DNA of 64,000 nucleotides from an uncultured Planctomycetia bacterium (GTDB lineage Bacteria > Omnitrophota > Gorgyraeia > 2-02-FULL-51-18): positions 43,946 through 107,945 of the forward strand of contig CAZXLF010000001.1 of assembly GCA_964642015.1 (NCBI GenBank), given 5' to 3'. Shown piece after piece: positions 3,154 to 33,300 of the stretch. A model generated the notes under the pieces. It was not told the DNA's origin and did not search any database. It saw only the letters and a program-made list of their open reading frames with translations. The first letter of the stretch is position 1, and each line of letters begins with the position of its first letter. A program made the translations under genes and the position numbers.

Positions 3154-3172
3154 AACACTTTCTTTAAATTAA

Positions 3173-4810: not shown

Positions 4811-4817
4811 GGTTTGA

Positions 4818-9300: not shown

Positions 9301-12300
9301 ATTGGCAGTCCCGAATGCAAAATCATATTTTGGAAAAATTGCCTCAGACCTCTACAAAAGAAACCCAGTATTTCTTTGGATTGCCGCAAGGCTATGTTGA
9401 AGAAAAAACTCATCCTGAGGGCGCGCGGTTAGCTGAGGAAAATAAGATACAATTTGTAACCGACAAAACTCAATATCCAAGACTGATCGTCAGTGTCGAA
9501 TCTTTAATAAGTCAATATGAAAGCGTTGACAAAAATGTCTCTGAAATGCTGCCAAATATTCAAAGCGATCTGCAAAACCCGCTTGCGGTATGGGTGGTCC
9601 GGGATGCTTTTAACCGCATCATCGGATTTAAAACTCTGAAAAAACCCCAATTTATCCAAGGCCTGACACAAGAAGCTCAAGATTTGATCAATGCGGGAGA
9701 AGGAATTGTTACCGGAGGATTTGTTGTGATGCCTGAAGCTCAAAGGCAAGGCCTTGGAAAACGTCTTATGGAGGAAAGCTTCCGGTACATTCAGGGTCTG
9801 GAGAAGCAAAATATACGCTACTATCTTGCCAGCATCGCATCTGACAATGCAGCATCATTCCGCGCTATTCACAGCGTTGCCGCTCAAATGGGTTTGACGA
9901 TGTACGGCCCATTCGTAAATGAAGGAAGCCGTCAATATGAATATTTGATAGATGTTTTTCCTGACAAAGCGCTTGGCGGACAAGCGGCCAATTTAATACA
10001 GCGTATGAATGCACTTCCGTCGAGTACAAAGGAAGCATGGGATCAGGCACAGCAAATAGCTGCTGGTAAAAGCGGCGGCTCCGCAACAGGCGCTCGTCTG
10101 ACCGGCACTTCAATCCAATGGGGAGACCAAGCGCCTATGCCTAATGCGGCTGCACACTCTTTGGCTTTTAAATCCGAAGATGAGATCGCCAAATTTATTC
10201 CCATCTGGCCTTTCGGTCCCCGAGTAACAGTCCGCAAAAATTCAGACACTCACATAGCGCTCTCCATTCGAGACAAGCGATTTAACATGATGACGATCGA
10301 ATTAAAACAAGATCCGTCAGATGAACATATGGTTTTTCTGGGGCATGGGCGGCCTGTTTATTCGGATCAGAGCTTATTACCTTCCGGGACGTCGACGGCA
10401 TCCTCAAATGCAGAGGCTTCAAAGCAGATTTTGTCACCTTTGATCAGAAATTGGATGAACAAATTTCTGCCCGATTGGTTGCTATCGAGAGGCTACAACA
10501 AGATCAAAGTTCAAATTCTATTTGATGATTCTCCGGAATTCTTTGATCGATTGGGCTTTAGAAGGCTGGACGACATGCATATGGTAAAAGACATCACACC
10601 TTCCCAAGGAGCTAGATTGGCGAAATCGACGATTGCGGGAGTGGAGTTGCCATTTGTTTTTTCCGATGCTGTCGGAGCCAATGGATTGTACGAGAGCATT
10701 ATATCGGATGCTAACGATGTGGCCGAGCAATTGCATAAATACATAGCCGAAACTTCCCGCACTAACCGAGAGATCGTGGATACTTCCACGTTAGCCATGA
10801 GTTCCGTAGCGCAAAGCGACCAAGTATTGCCGACGGTCTATATCGGAGATTTGCATGGAAGACTCGATGTTTTGTACGGCATTTTAAATGACGTGGTCGT
10901 CATTGATGGCAAAAAAATGAAAATCATCGAAGCGCTTTTAAACCGTCAGATTAAACTGCGTCAAGTGGGCGATAGTATCCACCCCGCCACAAGTAATAAT
11001 TATGAAAATAAAGAGGAACATTTAAGGAGTTTTGCGACTTACGTTTTTCTGATCACTTTGAAGAACCTTCGGCCAGATCTGGTGGATATTGTGATCGGTA
11101 ACCATGAAAATTCTGTGCTAAGCCGAGCGACTGTAGGTAAAAAAGTGCAGGACCGGTTGTTAAACTTAGGTGCATTTTTTAAAGAATCGATTGAGGATAG
11201 AAATAGCTGGCGAGGAAATGATTGGACGCAGATCCAATTCATGGACGACCAAAATCAAATGGTGACCTACAGCGCTGCCGAGACCGGCCAGCTATTGTAT
11301 GCCTTGTTTGCCAGAAGCGTAGAAGACCTCCCCGTCTATGTAAGGGATAAAACTTTTGACTCGACAATAGGAATGCTACACGCCGAAGTTCCATCAACAG
11401 ACACTGTTTTTACTTTGACTGATATGAAGGATGTATTGAGCAAGCCCTATTTGGAAGCGCATGGCATTGATCCTGATTATCTGAGGGACGCCCCTAATCA
11501 GCTTTATCAGCAGTTGCTATGGAACCGGAACTTTCAATATGACCCCCCGACAGGAGTGAAGTACTTAAACGCTTTTGCGGGTGATCCGCAAAAAGGAGCC
11601 GGGCTTATTTTTTCGGGCCACACACCTCCTTCGCATTTTTCTGATATGCCCGCAGAAGGAGTGTTGGTCTTGAAAGATCAGGCGGTCCCGCTTTTTGTCA
11701 CCATCAAAGATCCTCAAAGCGAAGCCAAACAGATCATTGGCGATGCCAGCGGAGATTACGACAGGGTCGGATACCTTTTGGTTGATGCCAGAAAAACTTT
11801 ACCATCTAATCCGCTCGATTTAAAAGCCCCTGATGATACTTCAGCTTTCAGAATTTTGGACCTTCAAGGCGCGTCTTATGTTTCAAGGCCTTTCGATATT
11901 GGCGCAGTACGCGCCGCAATTCCGGCATACGTCCCTACACCTGCCGATGCCAGGCAAGATCCGCGCATTTTTCGTGCGGGCACGCTTTGGTTCAAGATCC
12001 GGCTTCTAGGTGATGGTAAAATAATTTTGATCGACCCAGCTAGCAATGCTCCTTATGTTTCAACCGTCGCATCGGAAGTTTTCCCTGGCCATCCCTATCG
12101 AATAGGCAGAAATGTGGATTTTGAGGGCACGTTCCCCAATATCAATACTGTCTCCAGAACGCATGCGGAAATTATCAAGGATGGAGATGAATACAAGCTG
12201 GTGGATACCAATTCCAGCGCCGGAACTTTTGTAGGCGCTAAGCAGATCGTGAATCAAAATCCGGAAGTCTTGAATTTTGGCCCGCAGGGCGCCCGGTTGG

Positions 12301-15300
12301 CAATAGAACGGAATGAGAAAAGAGAAGATCTTGCTCGACGTCAAGCGGTGGACCGGATCATTGGTGATGTCACGGATTACATTAAATTCGAAAATGAAAT
12401 GAATAAGATCATCGATAAGATCAACCAGGGGATTCCGTTGAGCCAAACGGATGTGATCCGGTTGCAAGATAAATTAGCTTATCGTCTGCAGCTCAAAAAT
12501 TCTCTCGTGACGTTAAGAATAAAGGTGCATCAAGGCGATTATATCGTGGCTTTCAATCAACTCGGCCTTAAAACTCTGAACGATCTTCTCGGCACACCTG
12601 GCAATGACCGGGTCATTGCCAAGAGGCAGAATCTATTGATCAAGCTGATGACAGAAAATGGCTTGATTTCCTCTGGACGTAGCGAACGTTTAGAAAAAAA
12701 TTATAAGCAGGATAAATTCGTGATCCGGTCTTCAATCATCAGTAAACTCGGGATCGAAGAGGTCCAGAGAAGGTTGGATCTGGTATCAAAGGCTCTATCT
12801 GATCGGATGTCGAAATTTTTGATAGATGAGTACGGTAAAGAAAAAATGGTCAATTTTAAGTTTCAAACCTTGTATGGGATCAGCAATAAGGTTGAGAACG
12901 AAGATGACCAGGCCAAGATCACGTCAGACATTCAAGCGCTGCAGGCTTCAAAGATGGGCAGACGTCTTTTTGAAGAAAAACAAGTGAACGGTGAGCTTAT
13001 CTACGGAGCGAAGTTCAATCAAAATCAATTTGATGCACTGCAGCGCAGAGCTGCTTCTTTGGCGGAAGATTTAGGGATAACGCCTCGTCATTTTTTAAGC
13101 GAGATAGAAATGTCTGCGGTAAGAGGGATTTCCGAGGTGCAGATCCGGCAGGCGGTTTCAGACAAACGGATGCTCGAAAGAGATCTAAAGATAAAAACTT
13201 ACCTTGATATCATTGATCTGTTCGATTATCCGAAGACTTGGCCCGGGGCTGTCAGCGAGCGCACCGTTCGCGTGGATGAGATCCAGGCTTTGGTCGAGCT
13301 GTTTTTGAAAAATGTCAAACCGCGCGCGCCTCCGGACCAGCAGTGGTCAGTTGCAATACAAAAAGCTTTGGCTATTCTCAAAAGGAACTCAAAAAATCCT
13401 TCCATTACATCCGGAGAAGCGTTCCATGCTTATGCATCCGGGATCTCCGCCGCTGATCAGGAAAAAGGAAATGTCCACAATCATCGCTTTGTCGCCGTTG
13501 ACGTCATTGGATTTTGGGCGAGCATTCAAAGAAATCTGGGGAGAGCTCACGCGGCGTATTTTGATGCGATGCAACGAAATGCGCCGTCCGTTCAACGCCG
13601 TCAGGTACTTACTGACGAGGTATTGAAGGCTGACGACAAAGTGAAGAAGATGATCGCCGGTAAGATCAGACAGATCGACGGTTTCGTGAAGGCTGTCGGA
13701 GTTGAGCCTGAGAAAATGACATTGAACGACGGCTCTAAGGTATCAGCATTTTTCCAAGAAGGCGGCGACGAGATCGTTTTTATGATCCCGCCCAGTTTTG
13801 ATCTCAAGAAGACCAACGAACTTTTAGCCAAGATCCGTGCGCGTGGAATGGCCGCAGAAATCAGCTTTCAAGATCGTCCTGAACAGTCAACAGTGGCGCT
13901 CGGCCTTGCCCTTACCGAAATTAGAGCGGATGCTTTCGGAAGACCTTTCCAGAGCTCTCAAGCCGTTCAGGCGATCGATGCTTTTGTTAACGCCCAAAGC
14001 GCTGACGGATTGGCAAAGGAAATCGAAAAAGCGGGCGAGAAAGGTTTTGTTTCCTACGAGATCGTCAATCAGAATCAAAAAGCGAAACTTGTCCGCGAAG
14101 GAAAAATGACTGAGGGGAAGGACCGTGCATGGTTTGTTTATCGGCAAGCAGGCGCAGCCTCGCGGCGAGAGTTTTACGCAGATTACGCGAATAAAGTTCT
14201 AGCCGGAGCTCGTTTGGCATTCAAAGACTCCATGTCACAAGCGAATGAGCATGTCCAAAAAGCGCTTGAGATCATTAGAACAGCAGACCTGTTCTCAAGA
14301 ACGGATGTTGAAACTGCGCTAGAACAGATAGTTGAACAATTATCTCGAGTCGAGCAAATTCTTGCAGGCCAGAATGTTGATGAATCTGATCTGCTCCCAA
14401 TTCAGGCAAGACAAGATCTGGTGCAGGCCTTCTTGACCGCTATTTCGGTAATGAGAGACATCGATAAACTTACCGGGCTTTCGCTTGATCAGCGTTTGGA
14501 GCTTATCGGACAGTTAGCTAGAAGCGGATACAGCATTAATGATGCTTATAACGCTCTCTACGGAAGGCCAATAGGCGCTCGCCTGGCATCCCTGAGAGCG
14601 AAGTTGGTCGTTGCTTTTGCAGCTCTTGCAGGTGTCATTGCATTGATCTCCTTTGCGCCGAGACAGGCGCCCATCAAAGCCATAAAGCCTGCTCAGATCG
14701 AACGCATTGAGTCTAAACCTGCGCCTCAGCAGACAGAATCGCAAAAGACGATTACAGAAAAAGAACAGAAACCCGCAGACTTGCAAATATTGAAACAACA
14801 TGCGGAAGAACTTAAGAAACAATCCGATGATTTAAAGAAACAATCCAAAGTCCTTGAAAACAAAGCCATTTATCTCCAGAAAGAAAAAGAGCGGTTTCAA
14901 GAGAGTTTCAATTACCTTCAAACGGTTTATCTGCAGCAAATGCAAGTAAGCTGGTCTCTTGTCGGCGGGTTGAACCCAGAATCCAAGGTTGGGACAACGT
15001 TTGTTGATACGACCATCAAATTATTAGGAGGAGAAACTCTCAGAGTCCGTCAGGAACATGGCGTCTATCGTTTTCCAGAAGGATTTAACGTCCAAGATGT
15101 AAAAAGCAACGCAGCTTTTTCGCTGAATGAGAAAGGTATGATAACGGATCAATATGAAAATCTGGATAGCTTACCGGCTGAGATCCGTAAGGATCTGGAT
15201 GATATCAAGAAAGGATTTGCGTATCGCGGTCCGCAGTTCAGCGATCTGGCTTTGAAGCTGAATTCGGCTCTGGGTACTACCAATTTTAAAGCCAGTCATA

Positions 15301-18300
15301 TCCAGGAAATGCAGGGCCTTATCAAAGCCGGCTCATCTGTGGTTCAAGCTATTCAGAGCGTGGCCGATAAAGAGAGGATCACGATCAATACTGAAAATCT
15401 GAAGTCTGTGCCTGTCGAGCGTTTCGGAGCGTTGCTTCCGCACGCCGGCAGAGTCTATGCAAGGTATTTCGATTATATGATCGTTGATAAAAATCGCCAG
15501 ATTGTTGCGGCTTTTCGCAGAAAAAATTTGGAGAAAGGCGCCTCATTCAGAGATTTAGAAGTATTTCCCTCTTCTTTTAAAGATGAGAATCCGCTGCTTT
15601 TCGGAAGTTTTTTCAGCTATGACGAAAAATTTCCTGCTTCGATAGGGCGGACCCCGACGGATAAACGGGGTTATGAAATCGCCCAGAACAGCAATAATGA
15701 ATATCTTAAAACCTCTGAAGGAGTGCCTCTTTATTGGTTCAATGAGGATAAAGAAACGGGAGAGTTATCTGTATTAGACCGCGGCCGATACGCGCTAGTG
15801 TTCTTATCAGGAGTACGGCATCCGCTTATTCCGGATAAAAAAGGACCCATTAGCTATGATAACGGCACTCAGGTGACACATTTTAAAGTTTTGCCTGATT
15901 TATTTATCATCTCGGGATCACAAAGACTTCTTTGGACCAACCATTCAACTCTTGAAGGCCGAACAGTCGAGAGATATGAGAAGGCTTTGAGGGAGGGGGC
16001 GTGGTTTGCTCCTATAAAGTCCCGTAAGATGGCAGGGTGGAACGTACGTCCGCAGAATCAAGCTTTATACCCGTATTTTGAATCCCAAGAGAGCGACAAA
16101 GATAAGATCAAAGAAGAGACCGCTGAATTTGCGCGGAGAGAAGCCGAATTAAGACAGGCAATAGATAATGAGTCAAAAAAGCCTAATCCAGATTCTGAAA
16201 CATTGAAACTTCTGCAAAATGAGCTGAAAAGGCTAGGCACGCAGCATTTTATGATAGATGCAGATGGTTATATGCATGCAAGAACTCTGCCGTGGAAGCA
16301 TCTGCCGGGGGAGATGGATCGTATTGGGAATGAGCTCAGGGAAGTCGAGGGACAGAAAAAGGAAGCAGACGCTAACGAGGCAAAGATTAATGAACAGATT
16401 CAGGAGGCTTTGCAACAAATAGAAAAAATAGAAAAGGGCGCACTTCCTAATCCTTCACAAGTTGCTCCGGCCGGAGCGCGCCTTGCGGAAACACCAGGCT
16501 TCCTTTCTGAAAAATTGTTGGTCGAAGTAAAGAAAATAAATTCGCTCCGAGATCTCGATAATATCAATCAGTGGTTATCTTATGAAATCGCACAAAATCT
16601 GATCACCCCTGAACAGGTGGTAAATGCGTTGGCAAGTATTATCGATGATCATGGCAATGATGAACTCCGAGGGCCTTTTAAAGATATTGCTGATGCGGTT
16701 CAGAAATTGGTCAATGATCTGGAATCTGAGATGCCCGGATCTTTTAAAGATCAGTTGCACCGCATCTTGTTCAGCGATAAGAATTCGGTGAAAGAGATCA
16801 TGACTGTTATCAATCCGGATGGAATGCACATGAGGCCTTCTTATGGCGTAGCCCGATTATCATCAAAAATTAAAGATGAATTGAGTCTCGATGTTTATAT
16901 TCAAAATCTGAACAGGCATCAAAACGAGATAACGCATGCAAGCGAATCACTGTCAATGCAGGCTTTGGGAATTGAGCAGGGAGCGCAGATAAGGATCATC
17001 GTAACAAAGAGCGCTGATAAGCAATTATTGGCGAACGTTATTCAGATCATAAAAGATTTCCTTTTGGATGTCGCTGCACAACAAAATCCAGAGAGCCAAT
17101 TGGAGCCCTATCTAAATAGGATAAAAAATCTTGGCCAAACATCCAATAACGGCGCACGGCTTGCAGAGGCGGAGAACCAGGGAGCGATCTCCAAGGTAGT
17201 TCAATCTTTCTGGCGATCATATCGACGGGCTACTTATAAATTTTTACAAGCGCCGTTGCGCGTAGATGATCTGATCATTGCCGTCAACATCATGGATCTT
17301 GGCGCAGAGATCGAAAATGGCAGGGTGGTCACCAAAGACGCATTGAAAAAATTAAGGGAACTGATCCCTTCACTGAAGAAAATGGGCGCCGGTAAGGTTT
17401 ATATTTACGGTGGACTTTATCAGATGAGCGGTATTTCAAAAGGACTGCACTCAGACCCGGGTTTAAAACCCAGAACCGAGAATGGAGCCACTGTGGTCGC
17501 CGGCTATGACACCAAAAAAGAGACCGTAGACGGTATTGAATTCACCGATCGTTTTGGCAATCCTTTCTCAATTATGGGCATGGAAAATTTTAATCCTGAA
17601 CTTTCCAGCGGAAATGCCGAGCAGGATTACGCGAAAACCGTAGAGGCTCTGAAAAAAGAAGGCATTGAAGTTGTCGCGGATCTGGTTCCTTGGCTTTCGC
17701 CCAGCGCGATCAACGAGACGAATTACAAAGCAACATTTTATAGGGAGCTTAGCGGTGGATTGAATGACGAATTTCGAAGTGTGTCCGAAGAAAATAAAGT
17801 GAAATGGCTTGACGAAAAGGTCTTATCCAACAATCCTGGCTATGCCGCTGTTCGTATCAAAGAAAGAAATAATCAAGGCGCGCTTCAAGAAAGGGTCATT
17901 TTGGTCAAGCGTCTCGGGTTTTTTGGAATAGACAGCGGTGACCAAGTCATATTAAATCCTTTTCATCCGTGGACGCAGCAATATTATACGGATGCGGTCA
18001 ATAAGCAATTAAGTTTGGGAGTCAAAAATCTGCGCATTGATCTCGGCCATTTGGTCTTGAAGCGCCACATTCTCGGCTATTTTGATGAAATGCGAACAAA
18101 ATTATCCTCGGAAGGAAAAAGCATGGAAGATTGGCTCAGAGAAGCCGGTACTGATATCCAGCCTGGAGAAAGTTTTGACAGCTGGTTTCACAGATCTCCC
18201 GAAGTGTGGCGCGAAGTGATGGACAGGATCAGCGCCGATAAAACCCATGGCTATGATTATAAAGACATCAACCTCATCACTGAATCATATGATTCAAGTC

Positions 18301-21300
18301 CGAATGGAGACCAAAACGAGCTTTTTTTGCAGGGGGTGAAGAGCGGATATCAGATCAATTTCTTTAACGCTTTGTACGGGGTTCTTCGGAATGGCTGGTC
18401 GGCCAGGACTTTGAGAGATGCGGTCCAATTTGTGGTCAATATAAAACCTAGAGGCCTTATTTTCCCGACTAACTTTGATCAAACGCGCTTAGCAAGAATG
18501 GGACGAACCAGTGCCGGTGCGCTCCCGCTTAGCCTTGTGCTGGCGCATCTGGGAGTGCCTACGATGATCGATCTGGCGGATATCATGGGACTTCAGGGCC
18601 ACATGATCCCTATCCCCGGAGGAAATCACGACCCGAACGATGCGCATGCTCATCCCTATGTTACTTCAGATGATCTTAAGATGCGCAGAGATTTTGATTC
18701 ATTCAAGAGGGCGTTCGAAGAGAACAGTTTCATAACACTCTTCGACGAATTTCGAGGTAATGTCAGGACTGCGGAAGAAAAATATATCCAGATCCTCAAT
18801 AACAGCAATCTGGACCGTTACTTCACTTTGGCGTGGAAAGACGAGAGAAATGATTGGACTATTTTTATCTATGATACCAGGCCTTCGGAAAACAAGGGCG
18901 CTGAAAAGATCGAGTTGCCGTTTTCTGGAGATGAAACAGGATTCGCGGCCGCTGATTACGAAGCCTATGACTCTAAGACCGGAAAACAACTTGAAATATC
19001 TCGTTGGGAGCCCAGCAGATCCGATTCTGCGCCAATTGTACAAATAAATTTTGGGACCGAAGATCAGGGTTCCCAGTATCGGTTTATTCAATTGGCAAGA
19101 ACGCGCTATGTCCGTGAAGAAAGAAGACCGGTTGTTGAGCCATTGGATCAGGCCAGAGCGATGCTGACCCATTATTTGCCCGGTCAAAGATTGACGGAGC
19201 TTTCTAGGATTGTTGAAGAAGACCGTTTTGATCCGTTCCGAAATCAGGCTTTGCTTTTTGCGCTGCTGGATGAATATTTCGGTGTCAGAGCAAGGGCAGC
19301 GAACGTGATTGCCGGACGCAATTTCGGGCGCAGCGTGGCTGTCCCAGTGCGGGAGCTTTTATCTCATCTCGAAGATCCGCTTCAGCCGATCCAATTTTTC
19401 AATCAACAGCCGAAAATGATCAGGGACGTTGTTTTTGATCCGAAGCGAGGCGCAAGGAATTTGCGCTACGCGCTTTTATTTTCATTGGGAAAAATGTTGG
19501 CGGAACATCCTTCGAGAAACGAACAGATGTACATTGACCACTTGAGGGCTGAGCTTCGAAGGCAATTACAAAGAGAGACTCAAACATGGGATCAAAATAA
19601 GGATACTGAACTTCAACAGGTCGCAGCGGACCGCGATATGGCGCTAGGCCAAAATGAAAAAATGAGCCTGCTTGAAGTCTTGAGAACGGTCGTGTTGCGC
19701 AGCCGTAATTTTTCGGATGCAGAGAAAGATAAATTTCAATGGGTACGCGAGTCAGTGAATCAAATTTACCCCGAAACACAGGGAGATGAGGTATCCGACA
19801 TCATTTATAAACCTTACAGCGCCGCTGAAAACGGCGCACGGTTGGCTAAAGAAAAACCGACAGGAAGTATGTGGCATGATACCGATCTTCATGCGATTCA
19901 GGATTTTGTTAAAAAGAACAAAGGGCCTAAGCTTATTTTGATCTCAGGGATCGGTCCCGGTGTGGGAAAATCCACGCTTTTGAGACAAATGAGAGATGGA
20001 AATATCGATATCGGTCTGACCCGCCGCGATGAAAATTATTTTGCGGAAGGCAAGCAATTTGCCGACCTTTACAATGATTTTAGAACGGGCGAGCAAACTT
20101 CCGGAATATCGGATTATTCAAATCTACCGCTCCGTTTGCTGAGGTCAGACTATGATAAGACTCTTTTATCCAAGCCCTTGGCTTTTACCCATGAGATCGC
20201 GGTCGGCAGCTTTTTGACGTTTGTGTATGATCACGGGAAGGAACTTTTCTCCCCAAGGAACGACCGTCTCGTCGCGATAGAAGACTTTGGGACACATGGC
20301 TGGACCTCTGATCAATTGCAATGGCAGGTGTTGGCAAAAGAAAAGAATAAGTTGCCGGAGAAATTAGCCAACGCCTTCTTGAACATTTCGATCCTAAAAA
20401 TATATATCGATAATGACCCGCTCGATGCTGCCAAGCGCCGCATGGCATTCGAATCCACAACGATGCGTCAGGAAAGAGACGTCTACATTTCCCGGTCATC
20501 CGGCGCCAGATTGGCAAATGGAAATAATGTTCGATTTACTTTGATCGGCGGTGATCTGCCCGGAAGCGGAAACGCGATCCTGTTGAGATTGTCCGGAAAC
20601 AAAGCGGTGCTTTTGGATGCCGGCATTAAGTCCGATAAAAGACGAGTGTTAGAACAAGCGCTTGGGGCTGATAAATTAGCTGCCGTGATCATCACGCATG
20701 CACATTTGGATCATTCTGCCGGGGCTCCGTGGCTCCATCATTTTTATCCGGATGTTCCTATAGTCGTTTCTGAAACAACAGCCCGCATTTTGCCGCCGCT
20801 CTGGGACGATAATCTGCAATTTCAGGCCGGTGAATCGTGGAAAAGCACCAGGCACCATAATGCCGAGACAATGAGAGCGCTTGCGAAATTGCCGGTCGGT
20901 CAATGGTTCAAAGTAGACGACGATCTAAAAATCTATTTGAGCCATGCTGAACATGTGCCGGGCGCGGTCTCATTATTTTTAGCGACACGGAACGGTAACG
21001 TTCTTTATACCGGTGATACGTCCACCTCGGGGCAATTGACATTAGTGCCCAACGAGATTCTGCCGCCTCAAAAAGAAGCCGACACGCTGATCGTTGAAAC
21101 GACGAATGGCGGTCGAAATTTCGGACCGATCGAGGACAGAAGAGAAGAACTTATTCGTGAAGTCAAAGAAACTTTTGAAAAAGGCGGTAAGGTCCTGATA
21201 CCCGCTTTTGCGGTCGGTCGTTCAACGGAAGTCGCGATGATCCTGCAGAAAGCGATGGAAGAAGGAAAGCTTCCTCGCGCTACGATTTATTTGGATGGTA

Positions 21301-24300
21301 TGGCCCGAGGCATTGCGAAACAATTGCAGAAGGATCCCGATTTTCCCGATTTGCAATCCTGGTTTGAGCCGGGAAGTCTTGTTCAGGAAATGGTCGAAGA
21401 CGGTCAGAGATCGGCGGTAATGCGGTCCGGAGATCCGGCGATTTTGATCGCGGGCTCGGGAATGCTGAACGGCGGCTCAGCGCTCCGTTATTTGGCAAAT
21501 CTTATTGAAGACCAAAAAAATAAAATTATTCTTGTTGGTTATCAAGCCGCGGATTCTTTTGGAAAGATCATTCAAAGCGCTTCCTCGGGAGATAGAGTGA
21601 CCTTCCCTCAGAAAATAAGGCCGGTTGTCAAGATACCCGGAAGAAATCCTAACGATCTTGATTTTAGTTTGAACGCTGAAGTCAGGACGGTTTCGTTCAG
21701 TGCGCATGCGGGACACGATGGTTTAGTCGAGTTGATCTTGGGCGTAAATGCCAAAAATGTTTTTGGGGTGCACGGAAGCGATCAGGCAAAACAAGCTTTG
21801 AAGCAGGATCCTCGATTGAGTGGTGTCAATTTCGTTGAAGATTGGCAACTCGGACAGGAAAAAGATTTTCAAGCACCAGCGTCAAGAGCGGAAGAGTTTT
21901 CCGCTATTCAAGCGGAGCCGCTGCCTAAACCCGGCAAGGTTATACATCCTCTCGAAGACTTGGTCGCTGAAAACGTGCAAGAGTGGTTGAATCATTTCCT
22001 CGATATTGGAGCTTTGAGCTCGGATCAGATTGAGCGGATCGGAAGGGTCATCGATTTTCTCGAAGGTTATTTTAGAGTTGCCACGAGCGTCCAAAAGATC
22101 GAGGGGCTTTGGATAAAATTTTATGAAGCGTTCGAGTCAAAAAATCCAGCGACCGATCTTTTGCAATGGCTGGACGATCTCAAGTCGACAAAGAAAGTGA
22201 AGGTTCAAACCGTTAAGGCCGAGAAAAAAACCCGGACACCCGAAGAGATTATCGATGGGGAAGTGGCCGGATGGTCTGACAGTGTCAGAACTTTTTTGGA
22301 TATTGGATTACCTGAGGGATCAGCCCCTCAAAATATCAATGCTTTAAAAGGAGAGGTTCACCGGATCTCGGAATTTTTGCAAGGCACTGATTATGCGGAA
22401 CGCGCTCAAGATCTTTTTGATCGAGTAAGTCATGTCACAGAAATGAGCGAAGCGGCCCCATTTTTAAATTCGTCCCGGCAATGGGCTTCGGCTTTTATCG
22501 AGCAGATTTTGACCGCTTACTGGAGCCAGAATGTCGCTCGCGGTCAGTTGCGCAGAAGTTTGCAGCAAAATGGTACGGTTAGCCGTTGGCATAGCCAGGT
22601 TACGGAGAACAACACGGGATGGCAGTGGCTTAAAGAATCTTATCTTTGGTCGCAACGCTTTGAATCGGCTGGGACTGGAGATCCGCAAACTATTTATCCG
22701 GCTGTCAGAGGGTATTTCGAAAGGGCTATTACGACTGCTGAGCTTGAAGTCTTAGCGAATCAATTGGAAGCCGAAGTCAACGCGCAAGGAATAAATGCTG
22801 CCTGGGCTAGAATTTTGGCATCCGGACCAATTCAAGGCGCAAGACTTGCGATGAATGAACAAGAAGCTACAAGATTTTACGGAAACATCGCCGAATTATT
22901 TTTCCAATCTGCCTATCAATTGTTAAAGACATCCGATGAGTTGGGATTACCTCAAGTTCCCGGTTTTAATCAGTATAGTTTTCTTCTCAGTTATGTCGAC
23001 AGAGCGTTAGAAGGATTTTTAAAGGAAAGACAGATCACAAAGATCCAAAGAGGTATCGATAATATTTTGAGACGGCTCGATGAGCTTAAAGCAAGATCCT
23101 CGGCTTACGAAACCAATGACAATGTCCGCCAGTTCGAAACAGCCTTGACTTTACTGCAGCAAGATCTTTCGGAGATTGAAACGTCTGTGGCCAGTGACCG
23201 TTATACGATATTGGCTCATCTTTCGCCCTATCCTATGGACCTCAGCACAACAGCGCTTAGTATCCAGCAGATTCTGGAAAAGTACTTCGCCATTTTACAG
23301 AATTGGGCAGATCAAATGCAGATGTTGTATGAAGAGCGCAATATTTTTTACAAGTCTGAGGAGTTGTTGAGCGAGATCGCGGAAGGGGCTGATACTACAG
23401 AAAGTCCGTTCTCGGGATGGGCCATTTCGCTGAGGGACAATATTGTTCCGCAACTAGTTGATCTCGATAGATCGATTGGATATGAGGGGGATCGTGAGGT
23501 TCACGAAGCGTTCGCGGCGGTTGGTGAATCGTTGTTGTCTTTGGCGACTTATTTACGCATCGCGGCTTTGGTTAAACAAGGCGGAGCTGAAAATGCCGGC
23601 GCGCGATTAGCAGTACCGCTGAGCAAGAGCGCTGTATTCGCAACACTGGAAGATAAATTTCCTTTGGCGGTGATCGCTGTGAGTGCCGATGCTGTGAGCA
23701 GAAGGAACCGATATCTCGATGCTGTACCGTTTGCTTCGTCAGGTCCTTTTGAATATTCCTTCCGTATGGGGCAAGTCAACGATGAGTTGTTTTTCCACGG
23801 AGTAAGAGAGGCAACAAAATTTGCGGTTAAAGAGATCGTTAAGAACTGGCTCCATGTTTCAGATCAGATCAGTATCAAGAGCCCGGCCCGTTTGCGGATG
23901 AGTCATGATGATAAGGAGCTGATATTAGAATTTTTTAATCAAGGCCGTGCGTTCGATTTTGGATCAGCGACAGGTTATGGGGTGAGCGGTGCGCCGGGCA
24001 TCAGACGTCTCGGCGGAGTTCATTTCGGTTTCGGCATGGGACTGTTTTGGACCAGGATCCTGTTTGAACAATTGGGTCTCGGACACATGGAAGTGCATTC
24101 CGGAAATAAATTATGGCTTATCGATAAAGGGCATTTTGAAACAAGATCCGCCAGCTTCATAGACGGTACGTACATCATGCTGAATATTCCTCTGAATGCG
24201 GGAACGGTTCAGAAAAAACGAGAAATGAAATGGGAGGATCTGGTCAGGGAAGGTTATATGATCTCGGTTTCGCCGCTTCAGCAAGTGTTCGAAGGGATTT

Positions 24301-27300
24301 ATAGAGTCGATGTAGATGTATACGATAAAGAGCATGAAAAGATCTCGATCGGCGTCAATTTCTTTGTTTATGAAAAAGAAAAAATGATCGATGTCACTTC
24401 ATTTGCTCCCGGATTTCCTGAGCCTAGAAACGAAGAAGAGAAGGTCGGGCGCGGGAGAGCTTTGCTCGCGCATATTTTAAGTCCAGAAAAATATGGGAAT
24501 TATCTTGTATTTTCGGATGCTCTACCGAATTTCCGAAGATCGTTCTTGAAGATCCAAGCCTGGAACCCTAAAGCTAGTCTTGGGAAAGGCAAGCCTGAAT
24601 TCTTGGAACAAAAAGGAAGGATTTTAGAGCAGCTAACACTAAAGCGCGCCGATGCCAGATTGATCCAAGCTTTTCAAACGGCAAAAGTTATCGGAGTCAT
24701 ACCCGGAGTAATATCCGGCGCAAGATTGGCCGCCGGGGAGGTGAAAGAAGAAAAAACGGCCTCCGGTGACGGACTTTCATCGAAAACAGTGCGTGGAAAG
24801 ATCGCTTTCTTTTATCCAAAAAGCGCTGAAGAGATACTTTATGCGATCCCGCCTGAGAAGTTAGAGCAATCGCTGGATGAATTTAAAGATCTAATCAGGG
24901 AATTGGAAAGAGCGTTGGGAAATGAAAATACCGATCAAATCGATTATTTGAAGGCGAAATCGGAAAAAATCATCGCTTCTATAGAAGCGCAGATCGCCCA
25001 GGCAAGATCTTCGGCGGTGATCAATCCTGTAGCGCTTTTGATCAATGGAATAAAAGAAGATATTGAGCGGTCGGGCAATGGCGCTGGTGTTCTGTCGCGG
25101 AGCAAATTGGAAAATGTGCTTGACCTGACACGCGCTCAATCGATGGTTTTGTCCAGATTATTTTATTACAAGGACTTCAGCAGCCCCTCTTCATCTGAGT
25201 TGGCGGACGCGATGCGTGCAGCCAATCAAGAACTTGATAATGCCGATCAAATAATAGAGAAGTTCATTGATCAATATGACCAGATGGCTTTAGCTGCACA
25301 AAAAAGAGAAGCGGAGCTGACGAGAATCAAACAAAGTCTCGCCAATTCGATTAAAACCTTAAATCAAGATTTGCAGTCATTACAAGAAGCCAAGACGGCC
25401 CAATTTATGACCCAGAAAGAAATCGCGGACCGCCGGAAAGAAATCACCGAAAGGATCAAAGCCACCGAGGAACAGCTGAAGAAAATTCAAAGTGTTCTTC
25501 AACAGCAAATGAGCATTATCCTGAATTCTTTTAAAATGATGGCCGAGCAAATAAGAACAGAATATTTAGCCGCTGGTCAAACCAGAGAACGCACAAGAAA
25601 TCGTATGGTGGAGAGTAATAGAAATTTTGCAAGCATACTTTACGAGGATAAGTTAGTCAAACAGATGTTCCCGTTAAGAAGGCGCCTCATGGCTGGAGCG
25701 GCACAAGGAAAAACAAGCGACACCTATTTTCTTACAGGCACGAATGATGCTATTGCTCTTTTAAAAGAGATCATCAATGCTTTGGCGTCATCAGCGGAGA
25801 AAGTTTCAGAGACGCACAAGCTGGCCGCAGGAGATCATGAAGAAGATCTGATATTGGTCGTGAAGGATCCGTTAGGTGTAAGCACTTTGAGTCAAATATG
25901 GTCTAAGTACGGCCCGCGCATTAAGGGGGTCATTGCTACTAATGCCACGCGTAATACTCATTGGGTCATTGTTTCTCAGGGTTTTGCCGAACCTCCTGCT
26001 GTTTTGATCGTAAGCGATAAAGAAGCCGCGCAGCGGCTTACGCCTGGATTATCGGGTGATGACGCTATCCTTTTAAGTCAAGCATCCGGCGTCAGCACCG
26101 CTTATGTCAATCCGAGTCCCCAAAGTGTTCGCCACATGGAAATAGAAAATATCCGGCAATCTTTGGAACGCGAATTAGCTCTAAAGAAGAAGAATGATTC
26201 GACAGAATTCCGCATGCAAGCGAACGTTACGCCCGAAAATATCGAAGGATTGGATGAAAACGGAGCGGATGGCGTTGGTTTGGTGCGCACGGAGGATTGG
26301 GGCGCGTCCGTCGAGGCTTTGCTTGAGAAATATCTTGAAGCAACGCCTGAAGAGCGTCTGCTTTTGAGTCATGAGCTGAGGATCGAGCTCGCGAATAGTT
26401 ATGCCAAATTGATCAACCCCTCGCTTGCCGGAAAGGAGATCACATTCCGTACTTTTGATGTCCAGGAAGACAAGAACGAAAAATTCCTTACCAAATTAAA
26501 AAAGGCTGCCCAGAGAATGCCCGAGTTATTGTCAGGTGTCCCAAATATAGCAGGCTTTGATTTTTATAGGACAATGATAGGAAAGCGGATGCTGATCGAA
26601 CAGATCGCCGCGCTTTATACCGCCCAGAGTCGACTTGAAGAGAAAGAAAGGCCGCTTCTTAAGATCATGTTCCCACAAGTGAGGAACAGGGAAGATTTAA
26701 ATTACATCTATCACGAGATTTTACCTCAAGTCAGACTGACTTTAAGACGCTCTGGATTGTCGGCGTCGAGTGTTAACAAACTCACCAGATCCGTTATTTT
26801 TGGCGTCATGATCGAAACCAATGAGTCTCTGCAGAATATCAGTCAAATTTTGGAAAGCCCTCTGACGCGATTTCTAAGTGTCGGAACGAACGATTTGACC
26901 GCAGCGGTGGTTGGTGATTCCGTAGCGCGACTGGCTGCCAAGAGTACCGGCTCTTATGTGCCGGTAACGATCAATCGGGACTTACCGCAATTTGAAGATG
27001 TCTTTTCGAAATTGAATCCTGATGTTTTGCGGGCTCTTAAGAGTTTAGCGGAGGCCGTAGCGATCCACAACCAGACGAGCGGCCGGTCGGTTGAGCTGGG
27101 TTTCTGCGGAGAAATTGCTGGAGCGGACAAATTTTTGATCTTCCTGCTTTATTTGCAAAGGCAGTATGGGATACGGGTCTATTCCAGCATGTCGGCGGGC
27201 CGTATTCCGATGGCCAAATTCATGCTGCGGCAAGCATCGCGTATGAAACAAACCGTATATGCCAAGATATTCGATAGGCTGAGCGCAAGGACGGATCATT

Positions 27301-30300
27301 TCGGGGAGAAATTAGCAAGGGAATTGGTGGCAAATTCCAAGACTTATAAAAAAGAGGTGCTCAATAAAACGAGTGCAAGAGCGGCTGAGATCGAGGAAGC
27401 GGCGAGGCAGCAGGAAATCGCCGCAAGGAATATCGAAAAGATAGAGCTTTCTCAATCTGCCGATCTGTTTGGGGCACAGCCTTTGACAGACGGTGTCAGA
27501 GTATTCAGCAGTCAGATCAGATATACGCCCTTTTTAAACCGGGAACAACGTTTGGGCAATGCGGTGTATTTAGGTTCCTCAAGCTTTGCGCGCGCAGTGC
27601 TGGATGAGATCGTATTGAATGCGCTTGACGCGATGAGACATGCTTCTGAAAATCCTGACCCTTCTGCGGATGTTTCGATAGAGCTTTTCAATGAAGGGTC
27701 GATTCTGAAATTGACCGTGGTACAGGAAGGTGTGACGGATACGGATTGGGAAAAGCTCAAGTCAGTAGCGCAAAATTTTAAGGAACGAGGTACCGGTTAT
27801 CTTATTAGCTTAAGGGGTCTGCAGGGCAGTTCGTTTACTGGTATTTCCCGGGGTAACGGGTTTTATAACCTTGCGATGCTGATGCAGAGAACTCCCGCAT
27901 CCCTGACCTATTCGAAACAAGCCGGTTCGAATACTGTAAAGACAGAACTTATTTTTGATCTTGCGACTTACAATAAGTCCGGCGCACGCCTAGCTTCCTA
28001 TATGCCGTTTCCGCCGGAATTTGAAGGTAAAGAAATAATAAAAATTGGCGGCGAAATAACGCTCCGGGGTCCTGATGGCAAAAGGTCAATTTATGCGCAA
28101 AAGGATACCGCGTCGTTTAATTTTGATCAAAATGGGTTCACGCTCGCTGATCTGCCGTTCAGGATCGTTGCAGAAAAACAAATTAAACCGAAGAGCGAAG
28201 AACAAAAAGCCGGGCCTCAGGTCGCTAATGTCGAATACATTTTAGAGGCCTACGGCAGAGATAAGCAGTGGCACCGTCTGTTCGATGTTGATCTTCAAAA
28301 AGACAATCCGATCGCTATTTATCGCGGGGCAAGGCCTGAGAATCTGACCCCTCAGGGTTTCGAGCCGAATCATTTTGTTGACGGCGACGGGAATATTTAT
28401 ATTGATCTCGAAAAAGGGCCAACGGTGACCGGCGATCGAACATCGATCGCTTTTATTGCGAATGGTTTTAAACCAACTACTGTTTTACTGCCTATAGATT
28501 TGAGTTCAAATTTAATATCCAGACAGCGTATTTTAAGCAAAGGAGAGTATGTTCGCGGAAGGGACACGATCCGTCCAGGTGCCGAAAAAAGGTCATATGG
28601 TACTTACGCTTCCGATAAGGGTGAACGATTTGTCGTGTTTCCCGATTATAACCAACCGGCACACGCTGTTTTAACGGTCTTAGGCCCTGGCATTGCGCGT
28701 TTGGCAGATCTTGGAAGTATGAACGGAGCCTATATTTATCCGTTCGCGAAAAATAAACAAGCTGTTGTCGAGGCATCAGAGATCATTGAGCTGGTCTCGC
28801 GGGAGGGAGAGTCGCAATTTATTCTGCGTTCCCAATTAAATGAGAATTTAGATGAACTGTATTCCAATAATTCGATCCCGATCATCAGAAACGACAATCC
28901 TCAACAAAAATTCAAGGTCCAAGAGGCTCAGATCTACACCGCTTATGCTTCGATTGGAGAGCAGATCTTTGAACGGAAATTCTTTAAGGTAGAAGGTGGT
29001 TCTTTATTTGAATGGTCTCCGTCGGGTTGGCAGGCAAATCCTGGCAATAGACTGTTAGGCGGCGACGCTCCGCTTGAAGGCCAGAGATTCTTGAAAGAAA
29101 AAGACAGAAGCTTGGCGCCTTCCTATTTGATCCGATTATCCGACACAGAGGCCAATGTTATTATTATAAAAAGTTTTTCTGAAAGAGTTGTGATCAGGCC
29201 GGCGAATGATGATGAGAAGCGAAATCTCTCAGGCGCGCGATTGGCTTTGGGCAATATCGATCTGCATCTTCCTCAGAACGTGGAAGCTTCTACGGCAGCG
29301 CAACTTGAAGGCCTTCTTCTGCAATTAAAAGGTCTGCTCACAGCTTTTTATCGCAACACTTCGAAGAGCAGAGATTACAATTACCAGAAATTACTTGAAG
29401 TTTCGGCGAAGATCGAGGATATCGAAGAGTCTCTCGGGCTTAAATATGTCGATGAACGTTTTTGGGTTTCCAAGACATGGGAGACGACTACAGGTCCTCA
29501 GACCTATTTTAAGATTCATCCTTACCACAATGGTTTTCTGCCCGGCGTGCATTTTTTAGAACGCGAAAATGAGGCGATAGAGAGGATCAGGGAACGGGTG
29601 AGTGCGATCCGGAATACGCGTGGTAAAGATGAAATCGTCACACTAGCCATTGGCGGCCGGCCGGGAGTGGGTAAAACAACTTTCGCAGAAAGAATTCGGT
29701 CGAGCGGTCTTGAAGGATTATATGATGCGTCCGAGATCAAGGTTATCAATGTCGATAATTTCCTTGTGAACATCAATGCCGAACAGGTGGTGAATTTTTC
29801 TGATATTGAATATCAGATGAATTACCAGAAGGACCCCGAGATAAAACTAGTTGTTGTCGAAGGAACTCATTGGAGCCAGGTCTTTAATAAGTCGCGAGCA
29901 GTCGGTAATGCCAAAATTTTTGAGAGTAAACCGGACGTTTTTGTTTTCTTGGGTCTTGTCGATGAAGCGACCCGTTGGCACCGCATCTACGGACGCGAGA
30001 CAGATTTTGACCGTTACACGCGGCTTGAGCACTTCTTAAAAATGGCGATCCCGAGGAATATTTATGACCGTTACATCGGTATTGATGCGGAGTCTTTGAG
30101 CGCGGATGTCGTCTTGAATTATGAATCCAGGATCAGAGAAGAAAACGGCGCAAGACTGGCGGAACAGGATCTCAAGGATGCCATCGCGGAATTAAAAGCG
30201 ATCCAGGATATTTTGGGTACAACGCTTGAAGCGGTAGGTCATGGCGATATATTGCGAGCACTGTCTTTGTCGGACAGTGAGAAAGAATTTTTAGAGAGTC

Positions 30301-33300
30301 TATCAGAGATCATCTCGCGGGCAGAAAGCATTGCGAATGTGATGCGGGGACCGGAAGGTAAGCTTTTATATCCTCTATTTGAACCAATTTCCGGTTTCTT
30401 GATGAGTTTTTCCAACAGGATCGGCAGTTATCCGTTCCCTATCCAAGGCGTTTCCAAAGGAGCCGGCGGGATACTTTTTGTTTCCGACCGCCGGGAAGAG
30501 CTAGCAGATCTTTTTAGGCGCGCGTCCTATCATATGGATCTTTGGGTTTCCGGCCAGTCTCAGACAGCTGCATCGCTTCGGAATCCTTATGTCGCGGCGA
30601 AAAATGTCACGAGAACATTTGGTAGTGATGATGACATTGTCGGCCGTCGCATATCAAAAACGATCGGAGAGGTCCTTAAAACCAAACCGACAGCGGATGT
30701 GCTGATCATCGGTGCAGGAGCCGGCGAGATCGTGCGCACACTTGAGAATAAATACGGGAAGAAAGTGCACGTGACAGCGATCAATAAAGAAGCCGTGAAA
30801 ATATCGCCTGAAAAATATCTTCAAACAATACAAAGCCGGACAAGTCTTGCAAAGATCACGGAGTTTCTCGATCGTTTTAACCGTGATGTGATTATTCAGG
30901 ATGTTGATGGTAATCTGGCTATTGAAGGCAAGAGGGATGTGATCATTGTTTCATTTGAAACGCTGCGTTATATCAAAAATAAATTCCATCTGATCGCCCA
31001 AGCCAAAGAACTTTTGCGCAAAGACGGCGGACTATTTGTTATTGGAGGGCTCGACCTTATCACTTTGGAGTTATGGAAAGGTAAACGACGAACGAACCCA
31101 GATTGGTCTATAGAATCGTTTTTGAGTTTGATGAATGCAGAACATCGCGAGCCTCAATACGAGTATTTGCCTTATAAACACAGTTTAATTTTGACCAATC
31201 GTTATCCTGAGTCAACGTTCATGGACCTGCCTTTGATCGATTCAAAAGTGCGGCCTGATTTTGCTACTGATGACGGCGGGCAACAACAGCCTTTACCTCC
31301 CACCTATCAGGTCGTGTACAAATTCGATTCTTCAGGCGCCAGATTAGCGGCTGAGAAGGATCCCATGGATGAAGCGATGTCGGCCGTTCAGACTGCATTG
31401 CAAAATGTGATCAACGGCAACCGCGTTCTCTTTGAATTGGCTACGGGCCAAGCGAATGAATTGAAATTATTAACGGGTATGCAATTAGGAATGCTGGCAC
31501 GTCTCCATAAGAGTGGTCCTATTGTTCGTGATCTTCAACTGTTAAAAAATAACCCTCAAGATGCGGGCATTCGCGCGCGGGTTGTTTCCACGATTCAGGA
31601 AGTAAAAGCATCGGCGCAAAAATTGATTCAGGAATTCGAAGCGGTGCCCGAAAAAGCTCCCACGTTTGAATTTAATATTTTTAAAACCGAATATGGATTG
31701 GCGATAGCCAAGCTGGATGAAGCGTTGATCACTTTAGGCATCTCTCAAGGCGCGCGTCTTGCTGTATCTGAAGAGCCTGAAAATCAGGTCATTCCATTCC
31801 GCACAAAGAGGGTCGGCCCCAAAGGAGAATCGCCGGAGGAACGTTTGAGGTTTTATCAGGCGGAAGACGATGCGATCAACGCATTTTGGAAACAGCTTGA
31901 TCCAAAGAAAAATAAGGAAACCGACTATGCTCGCATTATTGAATCTCTGAATGCTGAATTCCGGAAAGCTCATCCGGAAGACGGAGCTTCACAGGTGATC
32001 AAGATAGGAAGTATTAAGGAGTTGACCCGATTTACCGAAGAGTTTCTCGGATATTATGAGCCTCGTTTGTTGCGAGGTTACGGAAAGCTTTATCATGCGA
32101 TCTGGTATTTGATCGAAAATGTTTGGCAGCATGCCGATGATTATGGGGCATTGATCATCAGGGCTCATGAAACGCGCGATGGACGAATTTCTTTTGTTGT
32201 GACCTTGCTTGATCGGGGCCAAGGTTTTGTGCGATGGGACGGCAGGCATGCGCCGATCCATCAAGCGGTACGTCAATTTACAAAATTGGGCAAGGGCGGG
32301 AACGCGGGTAATGGCCTGGCGAACACGGTACAAGATGCAAATTATATATCGATCCTGCAGATGAATAAACAGAAAGGCCTGACCTATTGGGAAAGAAATC
32401 CGGGTATAGTTAAAAATTGGACTGAATACCTGATCGAAAAGAAATTGCCTGATTCACAATCACCGGTAGAAACGGGAACAAAAGTCGTATTCATCATGAA
32501 TGATCTCCCGATCACTCCTCCTCAGCTCTATTTGAAAGCCGGCGCAAGACTTGCAAGCCGTGATCTTGGGTCTTTACGGAACCAGGTAAACTTTTTGGCG
32601 GGTGAAGTAAGAGCGCTTTTAAGAGAATTGAGACAGAATCAGGGAGCCTTAGATGAGACGATCGTGAACTATGCGAGGACTAAAGAACCCGGCATTGCGT
32701 GGACTCCGGCCTTAATTAAATACCGGACGGAGATAGAACAGCTTTTGAGCAGGTCTCGCGAGCAGCTTTTGCGTGCGAACCGTTTATTTGGATATGGACG
32801 CGATTATCAAGCGGTCTCTCAACTATTAAAGGCCTATGATGTCATCCAAGTGGAAATTGGTTTGTTTGTGAGGAAAATGTCGGAAGTCAAACAATCGGAA
32901 TACCGGCACTTGTCAGGCCGTTTCAATGAGGATTTTTCTTTTGACGAATTGCTGAATGACGTTGCGCAGTACCAGTATGAACATGGAAATCCTTATATTG
33001 CATATCGTTTGCACCTTCACGCCGCTTTAACGTGGTTCGATCAGATGGACCATACGTTGAGAGGAGTTTATTTCAAGAGACGTGTTGCTGATGTCAACCG
33101 TGTGCGTTTGGTAAAAGTCTCTCAAAAACTCATCGACAGCATCTTCAAGGCTTGGAAGCACTTGAAAGAAATCAAAGACGATGATCAAGATCAAAAGCGT
33201 TTCTTGAATATCCTTTTGCCTCAGCTGATAAGGCAATCTGATAGAATCCGTGAAAGTGTTGTAAGTAGCCAGAATGTATTTAGAGATGTCTTAAGTGATT

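Follow-up and report, generated by a model that had tools for sequence, protein, structure and literature searches.

In the 64,000-nucleotide (nt) stretch of DNA analyzed here (the window; contig CAZXLF010000001.1 of an uncultured Omnitrophota bacterium), a single open reading frame (ORF) encodes a giant protein that is punctuated by a recurrent junction peptide, and the twelfth of the cassettes so delimited is a beta-CASP nuclease. We propose that this nuclease is a self-contained RNA-type cassette of a multi-enzyme giant bearing a Sec signal, and that it would be processed from the chain and act in the cytoplasm of a prey or host cell; taken as a whole, this proposal appears to us somewhat better than evenly balanced. 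The positions of the features discussed are collected in Table 1.

A preliminary description had recognized a complete beta-CASP nuclease at 20520-21790 as one module of the giant protein. In the frame of the giant ORF this interval corresponds to aa 4761-5184, and HAHLDH (aa 4820), YTGD (aa 4923), VLIPAFAVGRSTE (aa 4985), and SAHAGHDG (aa 5154) are all in frame. The hidden Markov model search that it had proposed with three Pfam families bore the claim out: within aa 4661-5320, Lactamase_B (PF00753; 2.3e-21, 77 bits versus a cut-off of 22.7), Beta-Casp (PF10996; 5e-17, 63 bits versus 27.7), and RMMBL (PF07521; 1.3e-10, 41.5 bits versus 21.6) all scored above their Pfam cut-offs. The seven motifs follow each other in canonical order as described, with all ten metal-ligand and catalytic residues located by alignment; each of these positions is invariant in two alignments, one of 26 and one of 38 sequences, and the loss of zinc ligands that had been named as a possible objection was not observed, all of them being retained in residue-level alignments. 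E4953, H5156, and H5178 align with their equivalents in TTHA0252 and aCPSF1, H5178 standing opposite the His of their VHGE/EHGD motifs. The assignment of the last two motifs had to be corrected. VLIPAFAVGRSTE, previously assigned to motif B, cannot represent it because it contains no histidine, and corresponds to the IPxFAxGRxxE stretch that is conserved within the beta-CASP insert. Motif B is H5156 of FSAHAG, the very His of SAHAGHDG that had been taken for motif C, and motif C is H5178 of GVHGS.

The core (~435 aa) was modeled by AlphaFold from the 38-sequence alignment with a predicted local distance difference test (pLDDT) score of 85-96. Its first beta strand (VRFTLIGG) begins four residues past GARLA; residues 1-7 of the cassette model have a pLDDT below 50, and both segment ends are of low confidence, consistent with flexible linkers. 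Judged from the alignments and the model, the core of the cassette is a catalytically intact two-metal beta-CASP nuclease and very probably active. A catalytically dead scaffold kept for protein-protein contacts, like CPSF100 or INTS9, is hardly tenable. Eukaryotes are well known to possess inactive beta-CASP paralogues, CPSF100-type proteins having lost the catalytic residues, and some near-invariant noncatalytic positions are altered in the cassette (ESTYG to ETTNG, and GRxQE to GRSTE), but the ten ligand and catalytic residues are intact both here and in a 40% identical cassette from another giant protein (P0122, see below).

Table 1. Positions of the features of the giant ORF in the window and of its split counterpart
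Feature	Position (nt)	Strand	Position (aa)	Remarks
Giant ORF	6240..48383	+	14,047 aa	From the ORF list; translation with one stop, at the end
N-terminal signal-like sequence	6240..6323	+	1-28	Ends in SELAYA, followed by AP; MARKHKQIIRSLSLLLAVSFFASELAYA followed by AP
Module 1, candidate TIKI-like hydrolase	6324..7919	+	~29-560	Only module common to all family members
Strongest predicted transmembrane segment	14604..14660	+	2789-2807	Directly past junction aa 2779; Kyte-Doolittle 2.45
Beta-CASP cassette, 12th of 35	20502..22835	+	4755-5532	778 aa; includes the upstream GARLA and ends one residue ahead of the downstream one
Upstream junction G-A-R-L-A	20502..20516	+	4755-4759	
Metallo-beta-lactamase N-terminal part, PF00753	20559..21086	+	4774-4949	Holds motifs 1-4
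Motif 1	20616	+	D4793	
Motif 2	20697-20714	+	H4820-A-H4822-L-D4824-H4825	
Motif 3	20952	+	H4905	
Motif 4	21015	+	D4926	
Motif A	21096	+	E4953	Just 3' of the PF00753 stretch
Beta-CASP insert domain, PF10996	21228..21566	+	4997-5109	Preceded by the VLIPAFAVGRSTE segment
RMMBL "RNA specificity" segment, PF07521	21669..21806	+	5144-5189	
Motif B	21705	+	H5156	FSAHAG
Motif C	21771	+	H5178	GVHGS; 22 residues past motif B
All-alpha-helical extension	21834..22835	+	~5199-5532	~340 aa; conserved in the P0121/P0122 cassette
Downstream junction G-A-R-L-A	22836..22850	+	5533-5537	
GARL sites			641, 1061, 1284, 1457, 2017, 2656, 2779, 3412, 3638, 4532, 4755, 5533, 5787, 6160, 7248, 7665, 7970, 8366, 8504, 8768, 9052, 9317, 9656, 9966, 10284, 10888, 11428, 12219, 12497, 12624, 13023, 13244, 13462, 13675	
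Split module-1 architecture	L165 236-3945; L166 108-3817			JGI 3300027835 / 3300000571

By sequence and modeled fold, the module falls into the RNA-specific CPSF73/aCPSF1/TTHA0252 group. Sequence matches to solved structures had E values of 1e-40 to 1e-18, well outside what chance would give, and comprised aCPSF1 (1e-40), TTHA0252 (1e-37), FttA, Cas14, INTS11, and Ysh1/CPSF73. The best 50 structural neighbors of the model were all RNA enzymes (FttA, aCPSF1, TTHA0252, Ysh1, CPSF73, INTS11, and Cas14, with RNase J at rank 50), and no SNM1 or Artemis structure was among them. In NCBIfam, aCPSF1 (TIGR03675) ranked first (1.6e-64, 218 bits, covering model positions 169-609 only), followed by Cas14 (NF045584; 1.4e-43, 149 bits), while RNase J (TIGR00649) reached 23 bits; membership in these curated families was rejected, as the scores lie below the respective cut-offs of 580, 800, and 400 bits. 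The SNM1-type DRMBL family gave no match at Pfam E ≤ 0.1, and no KH domain was matched by Pfam within aa 4661-5320. As Callebaut et al. reportedly observed in 2002, motif C is a His in the RNA group and a Val in the SNM1/Artemis group.

The motif C His, the PF07521 match, the aCPSF1 score of 218 bits against the 23 bits of RNase J, and the absence of SNM1/Artemis neighbors make RNA far likelier than DNA, and from alignments and model alike RNA is the likely substrate. The earlier designation as CPSF73/RNase J/SNM1-like was thus too broad: the CPSF73 type stands, the RNase J type was dropped in view of its score, and membership in the SNM1/Artemis group was rejected on the motif C His, the missing DRMBL match, and the structural neighbors. 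The same observations, together with the strength of the RMMBL match, speak against a DNA nuclease of the SNM1/Artemis kind or an enzyme acting chiefly on the DNA of a target cell, which we consider very unlikely even though the beta-CASP superfamily has DNA-specific members and sequence gives no certain substrate preference. Less probable still is a hydrolase of small phosphodiesters such as cyclic nucleotide signals, similar to the metallo-beta-lactamase-fold enzyme Apyc1. Relatives, P0122 included, carry weak precomputed matches to PF23023 (Anti-Pycsar Apyc1), and the Apyc1 structure 7u2r is matched at 2.9e-4; the RNase matches are 30-35 orders of magnitude stronger, and the insert and motifs A-C are complete here, whereas Apyc1-type enzymes are without the beta-CASP insert.

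The core is followed by an extension that is helical in the AlphaFold model (pLDDT 33-66) and belongs to no Pfam family. A word-indexed search of 5.8 billion proteins gave no match for aa 5190-6160; word-indexed homology searching listed generic beta-CASPs (≤171 bits) and missed the cluster formed by two proteins, P0121 and P0122, to which BLASTP assigned 218 and 390 bits. This cluster surfaced only when the extension alone was run exhaustively with HMMER against 1.84 billion representatives, where P0121 was the one marginal match (E 2.5e-4). Among generic relatives of the core, the nearest show 30-34% identity and are either stand-alone genes of 420-860 aa or the ~640-aa archaeal aCPSF1. Peptide-pattern scans of species-representative genomes and JGI metagenomes revealed no close relatives of the cassette, and an alignment-based metagenome scan retrieved 80 loci, all of them generic stand-alone beta-CASPs of ≤35% identity with neither the extension nor GARL.

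P0122 is the N-terminal portion, 1,504 aa long, of a second Omnitrophota giant from a different metagenome-assembled genome (MAG; contig L164), and P0121, on a contig other than that of P0122, is part of an ORF with neither end in view. In P0122, a signal-like N terminus is followed by a homolog of the first module of the present giant (module 1, 33% identity), by AARLA, and then by the beta-CASP cassette, which is 40% identical over 613 aa (E 2e-122), is confirmed by Pfam, and has every motif intact. The alignment begins exactly at GARLA/AARLA and extends to residue 580 of the cassette, taking in every motif and the beginning of the extension. As it covers both parts with the motifs intact, core and extension appear to form a conserved unit selected for an intact active site. 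The cassette is in twelfth position here and in second position in P0122, where its 40% identical copy again starts at AARLA, which indicates that cassettes are shuffled units. On these sequence comparisons, the nuclease is ~30% identical to known ones, represents a small subfamily marked by a helical extension of its own, and is a movable cassette.

One might object that the 42-kb ORF results from an error of assembly or frame and that the beta-CASP enzyme is truly an ordinary stand-alone gene. The giant gene is fragmented in short-read assemblies, in which Logan contigs carrying the flanking nuo genes end there, and the nearest generic relatives are all stand-alone genes of 420-580 aa. We regard this explanation as barely credible, given 14,047 codons without a stop, a cassette start lacking start-codon context (the cassette begins ...SSGARLANGNNVRF), and a junction peptide maintained at the protein level. 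Moreover, module 1 and the nuclease are fused in one ORF in the independently assembled P0122, and in P0121, on another contig, the nuclease again lies within an ORF that is open at both ends.

The cassettes are set by the tetrapeptide GARL, which occurs 34 times in the giant protein (0.48 expected) at a spacing of 123-1,088 residues, nearly always as GARLA or GARLS, and so divides the chain into 35 cassettes. The junction consensus is [S/A/T/Q/N]-G-A-R-L-[A/S] and lies in flexible linkers. All six Arg and all six Leu codons are used, and sequence information is restricted to positions -1 to +4 with unconserved flanks; the junction is therefore maintained as a peptide and does not represent a DNA repeat. 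There is almost no relatedness between the 35 segments of the giant, which have the size of an ordinary single protein wherever domains are recognizable. About 12 different Pfam families were found in the giant protein. The segments identified include a GNAT acetyltransferase, methyltransferases (one of them CheR-like), Fic, two PPP-phosphatases with FHA, two HPr domains, and a phosphoenolpyruvate (PEP)-utilizer domain, along with P-loop kinase-like units recognized by Walker-type motifs and weak AAA_16/NB-ARC matches.

Being short, sharply delimited, maintained at the protein level, and placed in flexible linkers that separate unrelated units of protein size, the motif looks like the site of a polyprotein protease. 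By this analogy and from its sequence pattern, the junction could well be a cleavage site that releases the cassettes, for which we see a little less than an even chance; it may instead serve as a docking site or a translation pause. A full-text literature search for GARLA as a peptide yielded surnames only. The junction or a near variant (GARLA, GARLT, GSRLA, GARMA, AARLA) follows module 1 in 11 of the 15 fragments of relatives that reach past it, and the sequence beyond matches none of the cassettes of this giant. In a 55% identical relative that was seen on six contigs, a complete gene of 618 aa encodes module 1 and ends 17 residues after GARMA (VGARMAE); it overlaps by 16 nt (ATG...TAA) with a 622-aa gene that has an internal GARMS (NQGARMSEE), and unrelated genes come next. 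In this split version, gene ends thus coincide with the junction peptides of the fused versions. A likeness between the last cassette of the giant and that of the short relative (ORF2 of contig L165) was rejected (BLASTP E 4.4), and a phmmer search with L165 ORF2 matched none of the 35 modules. A degenerate junction copy, SGSRLAE (aa ~583-589), aligns with AARLAE of P0122.

A profile of module 1 finds 33 proteins (P0124-P0156), mostly partial ORFs of Omnitrophota assemblies, with identities up to 55-65%; free-standing secreted versions of ~500 aa exist as well. The invariant residues are H79, E107, E160, and H498, each of which ends a beta strand in the AlphaFold model (pLDDT 86, predicted template modeling score 0.82), a six-stranded alpha/beta core with a helical insertion of ~320 aa. 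The spacing between H79 and E107 is 28 residues and equals that of the His-Glu pairs quoted for the TIKI superfamily (PMC6254334), which includes the site-specific endopeptidases RRSP and Tiki (PMC6254334; PMC11237130). Sequence and model accordingly suggest module 1 as a possible TIKI/TraB/Ere-like hydrolase and candidate junction protease, which should be taken as a lead and not as a finding.

The preliminary description had further regarded the giant as targeted to the Sec pathway. This agrees with the N terminus, which looks like a Sec signal (MARKHKQIIRSLSLLLAVSFFASELAYA followed by AP), and equivalent signal-like N termini are conserved in those family members whose sequences begin at the N terminus. 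The giant protein is moreover nearly devoid of cysteine, with 7 Cys in 14,047 aa (0.05%) compared to 1.78% in 24 neighboring ORFs (P < 1e-21). The depletion is even along the full chain and marks no single topological compartment. Chains that are exported in an unfolded state or that work outside the cytoplasm typically show a depletion of this kind. One of the Cys residues (aa 6956) is located in a GFCGEIAG motif of the PEP-utilizer domain, which we take to match the catalytic Cys motif of enzyme I. Four others occur in two modules (aa 10103/10104 and aa 12887/12890) at a hydrophobic strand, with a His ~17-20 aa later; these modules (aa 9966-10283 and 12624-13022) presumably resemble Cys-His hydrolases of the CheD/CNF type, for which Pfam gave no support. 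The 622-aa ORF beside the module-1 gene of L165 has no Cys at all.

The recognizable cassettes require ATP, S-adenosylmethionine (SAM), acetyl-CoA, or PEP and can therefore work only inside a cell. Signal, Cys depletion, and cofactor requirements together favor delivery into another cell, in keeping with the lifestyle proposed for the phylum and with the suggestion of the preliminary description that the module is an effector acting on the RNA or DNA of another cell. In the mechanism that we propose, the chain would be cut at the junction peptides, and the cut would free the nuclease as a soluble protein of ~85 kDa with a near-native N terminus. The nuclease would then work in a cytoplasm alongside the other cofactor-dependent cassettes (GNAT, methyltransferases, P-loop kinase-like units, PPP phosphatase/FHA, Fic, HPr, and PEP-utilizer), most likely in that of a prey or host cell, and would cleave single-stranded RNA there, endonucleolytically and/or in the 5'-to-3' exonucleolytic direction as its nearest characterized relatives do, so that this RNA would be destroyed or misprocessed. 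Taken by itself, action in another cell is possible but tentative. Rather unlikely to hold in full is the most specific version, in which a Sec-exported polyprotein of ~35 enzymes would be cut after the Leu of G-A-R-L-A/S, possibly by its own TIKI-like module 1, to free a changeable effector kit into prey or host.

A serious rival, already named in the preliminary description as RNA processing tethered to the scaffold, is a tethered or locally released intracellular RNase, owing to the transmembrane segment at aa 2789-2807, whose summed value on the Hessa scale (0.05 kcal/mol) is by far the lowest in the protein. The giant would then form a platform anchored in the inner membrane with its bulk in the cytoplasm of the producer, and the cassette, whether cut loose or not, would process or degrade the producer's own RNA at the membrane, in loose likeness to membrane-bound degradosomes. 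A possible hairpin at aa 9337-9388 and the fact that the recognizable cassettes are all classic cytoplasmic enzymes fit this arrangement. Arguing against it, the cofactor-dependent GNAT, the CheR-like methyltransferase, and the PPP phosphatase with FHA are located past the signal peptide but ahead of the first transmembrane segment and are hence predicted to be exported. In addition, the depletion of Cys is uniform over the whole chain, and the cassette content differs greatly among relatives, which is unusual for a housekeeping machine of RNA decay. We judge the tethered arrangement to be unlikely, though it deserves to be taken seriously.

Several further points weigh against a released nuclease cassette acting in another cell. 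By ordinary topology rules, the segment at aa 2789-2807, situated between signal and nuclease, would leave the nuclease on the cytoplasmic side of the producer. The homologous cassette was found in one lineage only, the P0121/P0122 cluster, and its conservation rests on few sequences; the nuclease cassette also has no recognizable domain for RNA binding, of which the KH domains of aCPSF1 are an example. Regarding the cut itself, no protease domain was found in the giant at Pfam E ≤ 0.01 or in the ten unannotated modules at E ≤ 1, and the junction has Arg at P2, in contrast to the small-Leu-small consensus of MARTX sites. For module 1, matches to TIKI-clan Pfam families were weak (0.0018-0.011, each in 2 of 29 members), the best Foldseek match was to EreC at a nonsignificant E of 0.49, and there was no NCBIfam match.

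Hydrophobic, span-like segments stand directly after two junctions (14574-14660 and 34188-34403). The junction at aa 2779 reads GARLASLRAK-LVVAFAALAGVIALISFAP, and that at aa 9317 precedes the possible hairpin; in the relative P0143, a transmembrane-like stretch is likewise located directly past EGARLAV. If the chain were cut at the junction, such cassettes would have a signal-anchor-like N terminus of their own. The cassette immediately upstream of the nuclease (19833-20501, aa 4532-4754) is a small P-loop unit, LILISGIGPGVGKST, with weak NB-ARC/AAA_16 matches, and a further P-loop cassette resembling it was noted at aa ~7665-7969. The HPr-like domains (16794-17054 and 43752-44027) and the PEP-utilizer domain (26184-27236; similar to the C-terminal part of enzyme I) lie in separate cassettes and are components of a phosphotransfer chain of the phosphotransferase system type.

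The giant gene is flanked by two divergent sets of NADH dehydrogenase genes, at 753-5839 (minus strand) and 48472-57428 (plus strand), and the NuoF encoded beside it is 79-85% identical to that of Candidatus Omnitrophota MAGs. Assigned by eye, the upstream set has a fused nuoC/D with no nuoE/F/G in view; the downstream set comprises nuoA-B-C, a gene for a 343-aa TPR-like membrane protein (also by eye), and nuoD-E-F-G-H-I. The nuo flanks were found verbatim in two Logan assemblies, the contigs of which stop at the giant gene. The sequencing runs SRR12313480 and SRR12313477 contain this organism. No conservation of the gene neighborhood was found, with nuo operons here, FecR/GIY-YIG/GDSL lipase genes in L164, and yajC-secDF-recJ-recG in L167. 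In P0149, a 673-aa gene call on a JGI contig of 2,619 bp, ~200 aa with 61% identity to the beginning of module 1 are combined with NuoC/NuoD Pfam domains. This call is probably a miscall or a chimera, but it hints that a relative may share the nuo-giant neighborhood.

Among characterized enzymes, TTHA0252 of Thermus thermophilus, a representative of the bacterial stand-alone RNases of ~430 aa, has the same fold and domain order as the cassette and likewise no KH domains. Motifs 1-4 and A-C all align (E 8.5e-38), and the template modeling score is 0.82 across its whole chain at an identity of only ~26-28%. Unlike TTHA0252, the cassette is internal, without a start or stop codon of its own, and carries the 340-aa helical extension; following motif A, it reads ETTNG in place of E(S/G)TYG. 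The titles of the Protein Data Bank entries of TTHA0252 describe it as an RNase, and the chemistry to be expected is a two-metal hydrolysis of RNA. The archaeal transcription termination and RNA 3'-end factor aCPSF1/FttA gave the best Protein Data Bank matches in both sequence and structure (2ycb, 2xr1, 3af5, 9bct), yet the host of the cassette is bacterial, and the cassette, which starts at a junction peptide four residues ahead of the metallo-beta-lactamase fold, lacks the pair of N-terminal KH domains by which aCPSF1 is defined. CPSF73/Ysh1/INTS11, the eukaryotic endonucleases of pre-mRNA and snRNA 3'-ends, and Cas14 of type VII CRISPR systems belong to the same RNA-specific subgroup (E 1e-18 to 1e-32) but have a C-terminal domain unlike that of the cassette. 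Cas14 exemplifies the recruitment of a beta-CASP catalytic module to larger effector assemblies. Across all three domains of life, beta-CASP RNases are core enzymes for the processing of RNA 3'-ends as well as for termination and decay; an intact and movable beta-CASP enzyme in a signal-bearing giant suggests a new use, as cargo instead of housekeeping machinery.

Giant ORFs in Omnitrophota are common, poorly conserved, and possibly related to predation, and a predatory or parasitic lifestyle that employs them has been proposed for the phylum (PMC10066038). The "multi-enzyme" architectural class of giants has signal peptides and transmembrane helices (10.64898/2026.06.07.730766). The Omnitrophota members of this class come from the same phylum as the giant described here, exceed 10,000 aa, and have many enzyme domains tiling one chain (methyltransferase, GNAT, HATPase-like). 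Like this one, they combine a signal peptide and transmembrane segments with poor sequence conservation and a variable architecture; the present protein, which is of Omnitrophota origin, has 14,047 aa and many Pfam families with none dominating, and shows a signal-like N terminus and a transmembrane candidate, belongs to this class (class 1 of 10.64898/2026.06.07.730766). The main texts of these papers mention neither beta-CASP/lactamase domains nor polyproteins, linkers, or a junction motif. What is described here beyond the giants of these papers is the punctuation by G-A-R-L-A, the conservation of the N-terminal module, and the shuffling of cassettes. Post-translational cleavage of giants has been suspected, and the cleavage points are not known according to West-Roberts et al. 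(10.1101/2023.11.21.568195). Their lack blocks the structural and functional dissection of giants, which the G-A-R-L-A/S rule and the cassette limits would permit unit by unit, and existing metaproteomes can be searched for the chain ends that the rule predicts.

A parallel in logic is provided by the MARTX toxins, in which variable effector cassettes are freed by cleavage after Leu in unstructured linkers (PMC2900308) and one of the cassettes, RRSP, is an endopeptidase of the TIKI superfamily (PMC6254334). The giant and the MARTX toxins share the plan of one huge chain, secreted in MARTX and predicted to be exported here, with variable, recombining enzyme cassettes. Membership of the present giant among the MARTX proteins was rejected, as neither RTX repeats nor a C80 domain were found at Pfam E ≤ 0.01 in the whole protein or at E ≤ 1 in the ten unannotated modules. 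It differs from MARTX in being ~3 times larger, in originating from another phylum, and in the Arg at P2 of its junctions. If the polyprotein reading were true, G-A-R-L-A/S would be the first concrete cleavage-site rule for Omnitrophota giants, an RNase of the CPSF73/FttA type would serve as a weapon against the RNA of another cell, and a MARTX-like logic of delivery would have arisen independently.

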